Origin: Eledone cirrhosa
Lineage: Eukaryota
Length of the DNA stretch: 64,000 nucleotides
Assembly: GCA_964016885.1 (NCBI GenBank)
Contig: OZ024752.1
Span: forward strand, 15,128,001 to 15,192,000
Direction of reading: 5' to 3'
Shown: positions 1,207 to 50,072 of the stretch, piece after piece
Numbering within the stretch: position 1 is the stretch's first letter
How the letters are laid out: every line of letters begins with the position of its first letter
Program-made: the position numbers and the translations under genes
Notes under the pieces: generated by a model
Database searches by the model: none
The model's input: the letters and a program-made list of their open reading frames with translations, nothing else
Told to the model about the DNA's origin: nothing

Positions 1207-1600
1207 GGAAAAAGTACTGAAACAACATTGTACCTTTGAAATATGTATTATAAAATATGTACTTTGGTTATAATATTTCTCATTTATTAATATTTGGAAT
1301 AATATTATAGATACTCCAGATAAATCACTGTGAGTGCTTCGAATCTATTGTAAAATTTAATTCGTTGAATAATCAACGAACCATATAAACTTTTGGTTAT
1401 ATATATATATGTGTGTGTGTAGTGACACTACAGGAATTGAAGACTCAAGTACTTTAGCGGTATGTCGCATATCCAAACTCTTATATATTTTATCTGATGA
1501 AAACGTACTGAAACAACATTGTACCTTTGAAATATGTATAATGAAATATGTACTTTGGTTATGATATTTCTCATTTATTAATATTTTGAATAGTATTAAA
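1207..1600 (+). mobile_element. Non-autonomous PLE-type element, partial tandem (3' end with tail, then a hammerhead-bearing copy lacking the tail)
   Basis: 1207-1305 is directly repeated at 1501-1600; hammerhead in the second copy; ACTC/GAGT hairpin at 1313-1338; flanked by (TA)n. Confidence 0.7.
1485..1549 (+). ncRNA. Type I hammerhead ribozyme
   Basis: ATATTTTAT-CTGATGA-stem II (GTAC/GTAC)-GAAA-TATGTA-TA-ATGAAATAT. Confidence 0.75.
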
Positions 1601-1774
1601 TATATATATATATATATATATATATATATATATATATAATATATGTGTGTGTGCGTGTATAAATATATATACATGTATGACTCTAGAAAATGAACTGTCG
1701 CTAATGCAGATTATTTCATATTTATATATACAGATTATCCTTCAGATGCATTCTTACATACATATATAATAATA

Positions 1775-1881
1775 ATTGTTTTACTTTTGGCACAAGGCCA
1801 GCAATAACCCAGTGCATTACTTGTACTTTATTTTATCGACGCCGTAAGGATGAAAGGCAAAGCTAACCTCGGCGGAATTTG
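1775..1881 (-). mobile_element. tRNA-derived SINE, 3' fragment
   Basis: Reverse complement of the SINE core GCCTTTCATCCTTACGG..TCGATAAAATAAAGTAC and tail GCTGGCCTTGTGCCAAAAG; a shorter fragment lies at 2101-2179. Confidence 0.8.
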
Positions 1882-3114
1882 ATAATAATAATAGTAATAA
1901 ATGGATAATATATCACTATAACATCATAATTTATTTCATAATATATATTTCAGGAAGAAATTGTTAAGGCATACGCACCAGTTCGTAAACGGATTCAACT
2001 GATAAAGAAAACAGATGGGGGTAACATTGAACTGAAATAAGTGTTAAATTGGCATAAACATAACATTGGCTGTGTTACATTTTTCCCAGTGATACCAATA
2101 ATAATTGTTTCTTCCTTTGGCACAAGGCCAGCAATTATTCCAGTGCATTACTGGTACTTTATTTTATCGACCCCGTAAGAATCAATAATAATAAAGATAT
2201 TTAAATGGTCCCAATTTACCTGTTATACGCTGAGCTAAATTATTGAATAACTTACTGCATCCATAATGTTTGTTTTTGTTGGTTGTGTTGGGTGAATTTC
2301 TCATGTTCTTGTTGAGGACTTCTCCATATTTTCATTTATATGTAATAGCATCTTATATTTCTGTTTGTTATTTCCGGTTTCTAATTATTTAGCCAATCAT
2401 GTTTTGCAGTAAACTTATCAGCCAATCATTGAGCTTCTCTGCTGATACCTTATGTTAGCTTCTAATATATTTTAATTTGAATTATGGAATCATATATCCT
2501 AGAGAGCTCTGTTTGATTGGTTTTGGCAGTGCTTGGTTACACATATTTATAATGCCGTGCCATATCTGGTCACATTCTTTATCCTTTATTTTGAAATTTT
2601 AGACGTTATCCTCATCAGAATTATTTTATTTGTCTTTATGTTATTTGTCTATTGACTTTTAACTCATTTTTGTCAATTTCTTGACAAAATGATTTAGGTT
2701 GCTATCTGCTATCGATTTCTCTATATATTTATTTTTTCAAGTTTATTCAGGTTTCAATATCTTTATTTGTGTAAATATCTGGCTGCATTAAATGTTCGTT
2801 ATAACTACGCTGGCTGCTGCATATATCATTTCCTTTAACCTTGGGTATCGATGCCTCTACCTATTTCTTATTCATTAAACCGCTATTTTCTTCTATTTAT
2901 ATTTTTGTCTGTTGCTCTGCCCCAATGTTTGTTGATCGGCGTTCTGAATATGTTTTGGATTTTGCTTGCGATTCTTTGATATTTAGTTTATTTGTCCTGT
3001 CCGTATGAGCTTTATCTTCGTCAACTGCATTCTGAATGTGTTTACTTTTATTAATGATTTTGGTATTGATGTCGTATGTTTGCGTGGTATATTCTGTAGT
3101 TTGAATATTGCATT

Positions 3115-3750
3115 TCAATTTTTGATGTAACAGCTCAATGTGGATAATAAATTGCTAGTAAACAAGTCGTGGGCTGTCTTCCCTAATAGTTTTATATGAA
3201 TATATGTTTTGTAGTTTCGTCTGAGGAGTTGAATGGCGTTAAGAACCAGTGTGACAGGCGATGTGTCAATGCTGGCTAATTGAATTACAGATACCATTCA
3301 TTGGTGGGTCTGCCGAAACGGTCAGGTGTCTACAATCAAACACACACACACTCTGTGAGGTGACATCTCTTAGTAAGCTCTTAATTGAAGAAATAAAATA
3401 ATCCGAGTGATAGTGACGTATATGGCTGGATTTTAAGACCAAGAAATGTTTGAGGTAACACAGCAACACTCAATGTTGACACTTTATCTGAACCGAGGCA
3501 TTGTACTTGCAGGCACTGAATGAAAAGGCCATTCATAGCATATTTTTAACGAAAACAGAATTCAAATATCCACAGACATGAACTGGTTATAGAAAGGAGG
3601 GTGCGGAGGATATAGAAGCTCAGGACTTTAGAGATTGAAATAGAGATAAGAGTCAGGCAAATGTTGGAATCCATCGGGTAGAAGAGGACCTTAATATTCG
3701 AGATGATGCCAGAGGTGACACTAACAATGATCAACTGAAGGACAAATTAC
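3115..3750 (-). pseudogene. Highly decayed LINE endonuclease (CR1/L2-like) remnant
   Basis: Weak APE-like peptide fragments across broken minus-strand frames (e.g. KTAHDLFTS). Confidence 0.3.
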
Positions 3751-5567
3751 AAAAAGACAGACAGATGATTGCTGATATATCGGAAATCTCTAAATCAGAA
3801 GGCCAGTATTTTGAGGGGAACTGAAAAATCGATTAAATCCTTATTAGAACTTGATTTTATGAACCTGGTAGAGATGAATATCGAAGCTAACTTAAGGTGG
3901 ATTTGAAATCAGCACTTAAAGAGACGTAACTCTATGTCGCAAGCCTTGTTGTCCCATATGGATAGAACCCATCCTAGGAAAATCTGCGTTTCGAGGGATA
4001 CTCTACCTCGTTAAAACACATAATACAACAAAAGACTTTGACGCAAGGTGTCATATGGTAAATCGATATAAAAGATCTTCTGATATAATATATCGTAGGA
4101 ATATTTACGAAGGATTATCCTACTACAGACTTTGATCGATTGTTGTCTATATTCTAGACTTCAATGGGTACAATTCTGACAATTTGAAAAAGCATACGCC
4201 CACACGTTTATCGGTTTCGGTATGGAAATCTCTATATTCTCTAACTTATCTATAGATGTCTTAATTTATGTAACAATTACATTAGCATCTAACTGATAAG
4301 AAATATTGAAAACAAAAACTATGTAAAGCCATCTTATATGAATGTAGGATGAAGTCAATCTTATAATTGATAGGGGTTTTATCTCTAACATTCCAGACAA
4401 TCCAGAAAAAATAATATAGTAGATAAATCTAACCACTACTTTAATACCATGTTACTCGATAGCGCATTGACACAGGGATATGCCCACATATAATTTCATA
4501 ATTCGCCATTTTATTTAAATGTTAGGTCAAATATGTTTACTATTAGTAAACAAACCTATATGCCATAGAAATAAATTATAAAATGTTTACACGGACCAGC
4601 ATGAAACATTTACATTTGTACAAAGAACATAAAAAATGTATTACTCTCAGCCAGCAAAAATTTATGACAAATTCTATATAATCAAGCATCACCTTTAAAC
4701 ATACAGTAAAACGAAGACACACTCAACTTTTATGATCACTCCTAGCAACTGACAGTAAAAGCTGCAAACCACGGCAGTAAATTGAAAAATCAATGGAAAT
4801 TAAAGTTCTACAAAAATAAAAGGAAATGTATGATCTGCCCACGTAAGGAAAAGAGAAGCTCCTAAAAACTCTACATAAAATGTCTATTCAAATAGCAGGA
4901 CCAAAATGTCACTTTAAAAAACATTTATAAAGGAACAGATCAACAGTGGCTTCACCGACTAAAGCCTCACAAACGCATGAATATGTCAAATGTTTATTAT
5001 ATCTGTTGTTGATTTTCTCATCCAAAATTCCCATTTCTATCATTCTTCATTTTTTTCTTCATCAAAAATATTGCGTCCATTTGCTGAATGGAGTATGTAT
5101 AAATCTGACGTAAATTCACATAAATGATTACTTCTTCATCTTTCAACAATATAAACATAGACATTTTAATATATCTTCTTTCAGTACCTGGGGGAATAAA
5201 GCCTTTTTAACGCTGATCTGCTAAACAATATCTCAACGAATGGAAATGAGAAATGGTGGTAGAGATATTTTAGGGTGTAAAGAGTAGTATCTTTAGTACG
5301 TGAGAATTACCATGCTTGATGTGTTAAATGCTGGAAATTACAAGATGTCCCCCTTGAAAGGACACCAACGTATTTCAGCGCCTTGCTGACAGACCCGTCT
5401 TTTATATTTCACTTTTATTTATTCATATATATATTCAGTTGCTTCATAATATCTTAATGACTTCAGTCGTTTAGAAGTTGACACTTCTGTTGAACATGTG
5501 TTTCAACCTATAACATATAAAGGTTTTAAGTTCTGTAACTTTCTTTATTTCGAGAAATTCAGAACAC

Positions 5568-48614: not shown

Positions 48615-49180
48615 ATAAGGTAATGAATTCTTTTACAATGGAATCAGCTCGAATGAGGAAAAATATCACCTGAGCAGTGTATAAATTAATATGTAAGTGA
48701 TGAAACACAGATACCAACACATCTGTATATATATTGCAAAAGAAAAATTTAGCCAGATTGAAGTATACTAATACTACAGTTTGTCCATATCGATTTAAAA
48801 TAATAAATCAACGGAGACGAACTGTATTGCCAAAAGGCCGTGATGTTTAGACACATGTAAGTTTCAAAATCAAACCTGTTCCGTAGATAAGTTTAGACTT
48901 TAAGATCCAAATATGTTTCGAGTTAAATAAGTGTAAAAATATCATGTCCCTCTCTCCTCAGTAAACATCCAGAGACAAATTGATATGCTTCACTTCTAAA
49001 TAATTTAAAATTATTGTGCCTTTTGGCAATACAGTTCGTCTCCGTTGATTTATTATTTTAAATCGATATGGACAAACTGTAGTATAATAATTAGTATACT
49101 TCAATCTGGCTAAATTTTTCTTTTGCAATATATATACAGATGTGTTGGTATCTGTGTTTCATCACTTACATATTAATTTA
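48615..49180 (-). mobile_element. Fold-back hammerhead element
   Basis: ~48680-48839 is the reverse complement of ~49017-49181; tail hairpin GCTC/GAGC at 48647-48675. Confidence 0.8.
48842..48969 (-). ncRNA. Hammerhead with ~89-nt stem II domain
   Basis: GATGTTTA-CTGAGGA-[89 nt]-GAAA-CTTACATGTG-TC-TAAACATC (8-bp stem I). Confidence 0.55.
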
Positions 49181-49540
49181 TATATATATTATATATATAT
49201 ATTATATATATATATATTATATATATATATATATATTATATATATATATATATATTTATATATATATATATATTATATATATTATATATATATATATATA
49301 TATTATATATTATATATATATATATATATATATAATATATATATATATATATTATATATTATATATATATCTATATTATATATATATATTATATATATAT
49401 ATATATTATATATTATATATTATATATATTATATATATATATATATTATATATTATATATTATATATATATATTATATATATATATTATATATATATTAT
49501 ATATATATATTATATATATATATATATTATATGTCGTGCA

Positions 49541-49722
49541 TTTGGCAGTATCGGTAGAGGATTGGACGCCATGCTTTGACGCATAGAGTTACAGCCCTTG
49601 CCATTCTGAGTTAAAATCCCGCCGAGGTTAACTTTACCTTTCATCCTTACGGGGTCGATAAAATAAAGTACCAGTAATGTACTGGTGAATTGCTGACCAT
49701 GTGCCAAAAAATAGAAACAATT
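49541..49722 (+). mobile_element. tRNA-derived SINE
   Basis: Head, core and tail present. Confidence 0.85.
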
Positions 49723-49737
49723 ATATATATATAAATA

Positions 49738-50072
49738 TGTAATTGATGCTGGATGCTTAAAGTGTCCGTATGCGGTAGGCCGTATGGGTACTCAATGCCC
49801 TCGTAGAGCAGAGTATGATATCAGAGAAAAAAGAGAATCGGTGTTGCGGCGAAAGGTATTTATTGAACACATTACAAATGTTTCTCAAAAGACCAGCTCG
49901 GGGCACGATCGATATAGTGATCACACCTGACTCTGAAATCAATACAGTCGTCACCATATCGCCATATCGATCACCTTATCGATCGTGCCTCGAGCTGGTC
50001 GCCCGAGAAACATTTGTAATATGTCCAATAAATTCCTTTCCTCTCACACTGGTTCTCTTTTTTCTGTGATAA
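49738..50072 (-). mobile_element. Fold-back PLE-type terminus (diverged arms)
   Basis: ~49818-49924 versus ~49968-50071 inverted; tail hairpin at 49787-49814. Confidence 0.7.

Follow-up and report, generated by a model that had tools for sequence, protein, structure and literature searches.

Many dissimilar elements with hammerhead ribozymes in the genome of Eledone cirrhosa share a small bulged hairpin near their 3' ends, which raises the question of what reads this hairpin. We analyzed a stretch of 64,000 nucleotides from this genome ("the window"; assembly GCA_964016885.1, contig OZ024752.1, positions 15,128,001 to 15,192,000, numbered from 1 here). We found that Penelope-like elements (PLEs) of the Hydra clade have the hairpin twice in each unit, as copies that we will call M1 and M2. 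Sequence comparisons suggest that each copy likely docks the reverse transcriptase (RT) on the RNA, with copying starting about 5 nt 5' of the hairpin.

Form and frequency of the hairpin

The motif has an outer helix of 4 bp (RCUC paired with GAGY), a 2-nt bulge that starts with U, an inner helix that is free in both sequence and length, and a loop of 3 to over 60 nt, and it is often followed by ACU. A preliminary description of the window had reported 17 instances, and all of these are present, displaced by at most 3 nt. Self-comparison of the window places them in about 10 sequence families, so they are not 17 independent cases. The motif also exceeds its frequency in shuffled DNA, which had been suggested as a check: with a strict definition (an inner helix of at least 3 bp and a 2-nt bulge), the window has 12 matches, as compared to 1.6 ± 1.3 (maximum 5) in 30 block dinucleotide shuffles. 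Some sites are irregular: 1313 has a 1-nt bulge, the outer helix is broken at 29074, 44105-44121 has an A-C mismatch in the outer helix, and 48647-48675 has an additional inner bulge. Copies that were not on the earlier list are at 20099-20115(-), 44226-44286(-), and possibly 33706-33747(+). The sites had been described as lying mostly downstream of a hammerhead. This holds for 10 of the 17, which have a hammerhead core upstream on the same strand (7 canonical and 3 variant); for the other 7, we did not find a full core upstream.

The window is 33.5% GC and about 20% simple repeat, with one abundant short interspersed nuclear element (SINE), which we take to resemble octopus SINEs; the genome is 3.0 Gb. 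In 72 evenly spaced 10-kb stretches of the genome, bulges of 0, 1, 2, 3, 4, or 5 nt gave 38, 24, 61, 20, 11, and 13 matches, and five shuffles gave 21-29 matches as compared to the 61 for the 2-nt bulge. In the same test, some decoys whose outer helices consist of microsatellite letters had high scores too at even bulge sizes, so counts alone are no proof, and the case for the motif rests on its position and its covariation. A refined motif has 62 matches in 720 kb, and 50 of the 62 are followed on the 3' side by a TA run that is at most 130 nt away (the background is 18% of positions); shuffles gave 15-26 matches, with a TA run at 0-1 of them. TA is most frequent 6 nt 5' of the motif (43%). 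Rfam 15 has no match in the window at the gathering threshold, and in 43600-50100 it gave only sub-threshold matches that are unrelated to the motif.

A young Hydra-clade element with two copies of the hairpin

A PLE insertion at 15910-20617 has two arms, and both ends run into TA repeats. Its 819-aa open reading frame (ORF; 17619-20078, minus strand) encodes an RT followed by a GIY-YIG-type endonuclease. The family is very young: 131 scored copies in the genome are 99-100% identical, and its insertions lie in (TA)n. The unit is 4.2 kb, with a 3' untranslated region (UTR) of about 1.5 kb and a tail of about 160 nt. In the 5' repeat, M1 is at 20248-20281(-), and M2 (20099-20115) comes 166 nt later, with 37 nt between it and the start codon. 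In the 3' repeat, M1 is at 16040-16073(-), with a doubled 9-mer just before it and the tail behind it. A hammerhead-like motif with a U4C core variant, which we read by eye, lies 98 nt before this M1 (16125-16177, minus strand); the minimum free energy (MFE) fold recovers only its stem II. The long minus-strand arm ends at 15910, about 5 nt before the expected start of M2, and the short inverted arm (20420-20617) ends 3-4 nt before M1.

This element had been called a Naiad. As described in the parts of Craig et al. 2021 (PMC8557442) on which we draw throughout, Naiads have an N-terminal endonuclease, a CxC linker before the RT, and the DKA form of the DKG motif, while the Hydra clade has a C-terminal endonuclease, RWK, DKT, CxCX5C, CxxC, and CxH, and no CCHH. 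The 819-aa protein has RWR at residue 38 (an alignment column with K in 54 and R in 26 of 81 rows) and ADKT at residue 122 (DKG changed to DKT). The CxCX5C linker, CxxC, and CxH are at residues 678-686, 776-779, and 804-806 and are conserved in 79-81 of the 81 rows, and reading the ORF revealed no CCHH motif. With its endonuclease motifs at the C terminus, and DKT rather than DKA, we reject the Naiad assignment. Pfam has no match for either PLE ORF of the window, so the endonuclease was assigned from these motifs. The predicted structure of the protein (predicted local distance difference test, or pLDDT, of 86.7) has telomerases as its best fold matches. It also has two low-confidence asparagine-rich inserts (residues 486-533 and 629-673), which recall the N-rich inserts of rotifer Penelopes (described in part of PMC3846280). 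A search of viral contigs found no relative.

The second PLE of the window is decayed (37410-39752, minus strand). It has a piece of an ORF, a long 3' UTR, a hammerhead core at 37635, M1 (37515-37535, minus strand), and a tail. The ORF piece (38871-39752) represents another Hydra family, and in other copies it is continuous with the motif at 37535. Canonical hammerhead cores are found in this family and in others; as mentioned above, the young family has the U4C variant. The sequence motifs place the window's PLEs in the Hydra clade.

Each unit has M1 and M2

The order within a unit is hammerhead, M1, tail, M2, ORF, with M2 at 40-90 nt before the start codon. The position of M2 was predicted beforehand: if the tails end before a hidden second copy of the hairpin, then M2 should lie just past the tail. 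By pattern searches and fetched copies, we found M2 past the tail in 7 of 8 tailed families. (We name families by the coordinate of a motif in the window.) Matches numbered 250 for the 15365 family, 424 for the 14147 family, 59 for the 46883 family, and 236 for the 48675 family, and backward control patterns gave none. The 28943 family has M2 in 25 rows, most of which share an identical M2, and the 49814 family has it in 2 places. In the 37535 family, the pattern search had missed a long-loop M2 that is present in 2 of 8 fetched full copies (L333 and L336).

Insertions end just before the hairpins

In the self-comparison of the window, inverted or tandem partner arms stop at the motif: the arm ends lie 3-10 nt before M1 or M2 and are joined to TA repeats. 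Across the window and 79 further 10-kb stretches, there are 92 refined motif matches, of which 41 have a local inverted arm (counted by hand, with 8 nested duplicates dropped and with the nearest alignment used if there were several). Of the 32 inverted arms outside the window, 30 end between -10 and +2 of the motif's start, as do 8 of the 9 in the window.

For the young family, we fetched 20 loci: 14 show both ends, five show one end only, and one has a diverged neighbour. All 14 insertions with both ends visible have one M1 arm and an opposite M2 arm, with the ends at 3-5 nt before M1 and 4-6 nt before M2. The probability of this pairing by chance is 0.5^14 = 6e-5. The arm that bears the ORF can be either of the two. 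Similarly, all 3 of 3 insertions of a 591-bp family (described below) have one M1 and one M2 arm.

The ends also show signs of slippage. At 6 of 14 M1 arm ends, the terminal 7-9 nt recur 2-3 times, as compared to 1 of 36 read-through copies (Fisher p = 0.001), and among M2 ends such a repeat was seen once. This stutter is expected if synthesis starts, and slips, at these sites.

In two loci (L219 and L309), both arms of one insertion have a private variant of M1 in common, which suggests that a single donor gave rise to both complementary DNAs (cDNAs).

The hairpin is conserved and covaries

To test conservation independently, we used 95 loci from metagenome and genome contigs that were chosen by protein similarity alone; these form 74 families at 75% DNA identity. 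(The loci that were found in bacterial bins are probably host DNA.) We searched 250-nt zones with a pattern that considers sequence only and has no pairing rule. Of 47 eligible loci, 30 have the pattern in the 250 nt that follow the hammerhead core, and 46 of 54 have it in the 250 nt that precede the ORF. Overall, it is present in 57 of 71 loci and, counted by family, in 44 of 54, while 0.06 matches are expected per 250 nt, as estimated from ORFs; on the opposite strand, the two zones had matches in 7 and 6 loci. M1 is 73-103 nt from the hammerhead core in 29 of 30 loci, and 25 families have two copies, 57-83 nt apart. The earlier suggestion of a conserved cis-signal that is common to PLEs that encode an RT and to non-coding hammerhead elements is supported.

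Covariation had also been proposed as a check, and we examined pairing in 63 de-duplicated instances. With a bulge of 2 nt, the first inner pair forms in 60 of 62 instances, as compared to 3/63, 4/63, 8/62, and 21/57 at other registers. This pair is C-G in 39 instances and U-A in 19. Mutual information exceeded all 2,000 shuffles for inner pairs 1-3, and not for pair 4; separate counts of pairs agree that the inner helix covaries. A quick tree of 33 proteins requires 5-7 switches of the first pair between U-A and C-G, 4-5 of them forced by well-supported branches, so the covariation does not reflect a single inherited event.

A covariance model (R1) was built from 44 instances, 9 of them from the window, so its matches in the window are partly by construction. 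Of 30 related loci outside its training set, 7 have matches to it at E < 0.02, 14 in all. By eye, we also saw the motif in the published consensi Hydra-2_Amil and Hydra-2_Ajap and twice at the start of Hydra-1_Ajap, and a variant in Hydra-1_Crog (PMC8557442); the hosts are a coral and a sea cucumber and, for the variant, a copepod. Three core 9-mers occur 6 times in the part of the supplement of Craig et al. that we used (as exact words, so words split across lines are missed). Four of these are at the ends of Hydra consensi, and the other 2 are in apparent coding stretches in the Naiad and Chlamys files.

Coding families and their stubs in the window

The short elements of the window had been viewed as mostly non-coding borrowers of one RT. 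This is not supported, as 6 of the 9 other families that we tested could be tied to their own Hydra-type ORFs, whose products share 30-54% identity with the window protein in the stretches that match. An ORF match was found in 20 of 20 loci for the 15365 family, 16 of 20 for the 14147 family, 6 of 8 for the 28943 family, and one locus for the 49814 family. Most of the window's examples are therefore 5'-truncated stubs of other protein-coding families.

The 15365 family has M1 at 15365-15389(+), in a truncated stub whose inverted arm (15014-15365) stops at M1, and again at 24058-24082(-). The 14147 family, with a period of about 3.54 kb, has a stub with M1 at 14124-14147(-), an M1 at 37338-37361(+), and a mutated M1 at 29074-29097(+). 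In a stub of the 28943 family, M1 (28943-28963, plus strand) also has an inverted arm that stops at it (28635-28943). Two elements resemble this one: a short stub with M1 at 40749-40768(+) is 78% similar to it, and the element with the 1-nt bulge (M1 at 1313-1335, plus strand), whose adjoining direct copy (1482-1604) stops at M1, is 73% similar. The M1 at 27756-27780(-) lies in a putative stub that is related to the 1313 element (78%). At 23426-23506(+) is a long-loop M1, and two loci of its family have an endonuclease-coding stretch upstream. Finally, M1 at 49790-49814(-) is in a stub whose inverted arm (49819-50071) stops at M1; in locus L281 of this family, M2 is followed by a Hydra ORF.

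Non-coding families with both copies

Three families, with units of 518, 591, and about 2,400 bp, have both copies of the motif and are non-coding. The 591-bp tandem family has an insertion with both arms at 43701-44874, which ends 5 nt before M1 and 5 nt before M2. Its M1 (44226-44286, minus strand) has a long loop, and the MFE fold pairs its 3' strand elsewhere; its M2 is at 44105-44121(-). The unit has 4,168 pattern matches in the genome, a check of RNA runs listed none that contains it, its longest frame from an ATG is 24 aa, and its hammerhead core, as read by eye, is a U3-A8 variant. The family with a period of about 518 bp has an insertion at 48619-49172 with a canonical hammerhead core (48961, minus strand) and M1 at 48647-48675(-); in this family, M2 lies behind the tail in the 236 genome matches. 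The roughly 2.4-kb family is represented by a two-arm stub (45775-47008) with a hammerhead core at 46770 and M1 at 46883-46942(+), and 6 units that we examined have no match to 121 Hydra-type proteins. The 591- and 518-bp families fit the short non-coding tandem unit of non-LTR (long terminal repeat) retrozymes.

The hammerhead cores of two unrelated families (L245-L264 and L304-L313) have U3 and A8 instead of C3 and G8. Hammerheads probably tolerate both U3-A8 and U4C cores.

A proposed mechanism for insertion

We propose that the endonuclease would nick both strands of a TA repeat and that each 3' end would pair with the UA-rich bases just before a hairpin. Two cDNAs would be made, one started at each copy of the hairpin. 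The M2-primed cDNA would include the tail and M1, and the M1-primed cDNA would not, so the tail would be at one end only. The two 5'-truncated cDNAs would then join head to head. Because the copy that sets the start is absent from its own arm, the hairpin must be read on the template, which we infer to be RNA bound by the RT. This agrees in part with the preliminary description, which had the RT and endonuclease of a Naiad reading the motif: the element's own protein probably does read it, and it is the Naiad label that fails. New source elements would form only if copying passes one unit on a tandem or circular RNA, and the non-coding families would be mobilised because they have kept both copies. 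An arm that has the ORF and ends at M2 requires a template with M2 after the ORF. Either a tandem array or a circle made by the hammerhead would serve, and tandem arrays do exist in these families. Docking at two hairpins would account for the lopsided, one-tailed ends of PLE insertions.

A bolder version, which we put forward tentatively, is that one protein complex, having two RT active sites, would bind M1 and M2 within the same hammerhead-processed circular RNA and would prime the two cut TA strands simultaneously. The stuttering would then be telomerase-like, and the pair of hairpins would be a portable, clade-wide licence that moves retrozymes. The two terminal repeats of the window's young PLE differ from each other, which is at odds with a single circular template unless there was later change.

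Several observations weigh against docking at the hairpins, or against its generality. All 14 insertions with both ends visible are from a single family. Ten of the 54 eligible families lack a match to the pattern, and we found no M2 in the 23426 family with loops of up to 33 nt. Three of the four outer pairs are invariant, which supports a reading of sequence rather than of pairing; M2 often has a single inner pair; and in MFE predictions, some copies form a weak or a different fold (44121 at -0.9 kcal/mol; 44286 with alternative pairing). Two tailed hammerhead elements of the window (34270-35097 and 24554-25551) have no recognisable motif, so the signal is not universal among PLE-type elements. 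Also, the Poseidon PLE starts inside a stem-loop of its ORF, and no common motif was reported for it (PMC11167929).

The arm ends would also be as observed if the hairpins mark places, about 5 nt 5' of M1 or M2, where a nuclease of the host or of the element cuts the RNA or its 3' end is formed, and the RT starts at ordinary RNA 3' ends. Stutter at the start would be allowed, and the ends of Poseidon RNA-seq reads do coincide with the start sites. However, a longer 3' end of the RNA left the size of the Poseidon product unchanged, which suggests internal starts (PMC11167929). Furthermore, cutting alone does not account for one M1 and one M2 end per insertion, and in Rfam the motif has no match among ribozyme or processing families. 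We consider this explanation unlikely. We give still less credence to the idea that the GIY-YIG endonuclease reads the motif as DNA, in a cruciform or a single strand, and trims or resolves an integration intermediate. Stuttered end repeats are a mark of synthesis rather than of trimming; loops of 3 to over 60 nt fit a folded single strand; and TA repeats, not the motif, are the integration targets. The inner helix also has 14 G-U pairs on the sense strand as compared to 5 A-C mismatches, which is weak evidence from a hand count that is uncorrected for U-rich bias. On the other hand, the near-invariant outer helix does resemble a protein's site, cleavage by the endonuclease was proposed to shape the tail (PMC8557442), and, as PMC11167929 cites, plasmid cutting by the Drosophila Penelope endonuclease depends on the tail.

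In another scenario, the motif would only recruit the protein, or would serve transcription or translation before the ORF, while the ends would be set by pairing of TA with UA-rich RNA and the inverted arm would arise by antisense self-priming. UA-rich bases do lie just 5' of the motif, M2 does lie 40-90 nt before the start codon, and antisense self-priming was proposed for inverted PLE arms (in part of PMC3846280). But UA-rich stretches are plentiful in these elements, yet in different families the ends cluster a fixed distance away from the motif; M2 is kept in the non-coding families; and both arms have defined end sites, in TA repeats, as if each were target-primed. This scenario seems to us quite improbable. 

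Comparison to known systems

The closest parallel to docking at two hairpins is the Poseidon PLE of Anolis, whose RT starts internally in vitro at two sites that bound the tail, with both target strands extended (Frangieh et al. 2024, PMC11167929). The two systems have in common two internal starts around the tail, a hammerhead upstream, an AT-rich target, and extension of both strands. In contrast to the Hydra-clade case, Poseidon belongs to another clade and starts in an AC-rich stem-loop within its ORF, and that study described no conserved or duplicated signal and no rule that assigns one start to each arm. The window's PLE is like the Hydra-clade elements of Craig et al. (PMC8557442) in its domain order, diagnostic motifs, hammerhead, and TA target; its 4.2-kb unit is longer than the under 3 kb that is usual for the clade. 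The parts of that paper that we draw on do not mention the motif.

Another parallel is the eel long interspersed nuclear element (LINE) UnaL2 together with its partner SINEs, in which coding and non-coding elements share a bulged hairpin beside the RT start. According to the part of PMC1636434 that we used, the 3' stem-loop of UnaL2 is needed for mobility, and slippage occurs at initiation beside the bulged hairpin. However, the UnaL2 hairpin is a single copy that lies upstream of the start, is copied into the insertion, and is recognised in its loop, whereas the Hydra-clade hairpin is present twice, each copy lies downstream of its own start and is omitted from that arm, and the loop is free while the base of the stem is fixed.

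The non-coding families resemble the non-LTR retrozymes of animals, which have tandem non-coding units and type I hammerheads and are believed to rely on PLEs (Cervera and de la Pena 2020, PMC7229834; Li et al. 2026, 10.64898/2026.07.22.740005). In the parts of those papers that we used, the link to PLEs is by co-occurrence and similarity of terminal repeats. Here, three non-coding families are tied to one clade of PLEs by a specific common signal and by the positions of their ends.

We found no description of the motif in Rfam or in the papers that we searched, including a search for analogous signals of LINEs. Cis-signals beside an RT start were already known; what appears to be new is a duplicated and uncopied signal that would fix both ends of PLE insertions across a clade.

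Other elements in the window

The element at 34270-35097 has a hammerhead and two arms, one of which bears a tail of about 43 nt, and it is inserted in another element; it is possibly the partner of a different PLE clade. The 463-bp tandem hammerhead unit at 24554-25551 is non-coding, has one short end and one long end, and does not match the motif; it may carry a different twin signal. A very abundant repeat end (33123-33250 and many other loci) stops before TA runs at two points that are separated by about 40 nt, also without the motif, and is likely from another PLE clade. The two-arm hammerhead element at 33348-34265 has the M2-like hairpin 33706-33747 near its 5' part, and its M1 was not recognised. 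Decayed remnants of LINE-type RTs (Pfam RVT_1) at 7698-8629 and 59196-62177 are unrelated to the motif. Finally, a 735-bp element (14263-14997) with 161-bp terminal inverted repeats that are 99% alike adjoins the stub at 15014.

Implications

How PLEs choose their RNA, and how they form inverted, one-tailed insertions, were flagged as open by Craig et al. (PMC8557442) and by Frangieh et al. (PMC11167929). PLEs are the closest relatives of the telomerase RT, and the hairpin pair offers a small, defined signal. The two start sites are predicted to the base, and the very young family, with its intact ORF, is well suited for testing them. The hairpin also offers a marker for the true ends of Hydra-clade elements, of which this genome may have very roughly 200,000 (50 tailed matches in 720 kb, scaled to 3.0 Gb), and a way to link animal retrozymes directly to a named partner RT.

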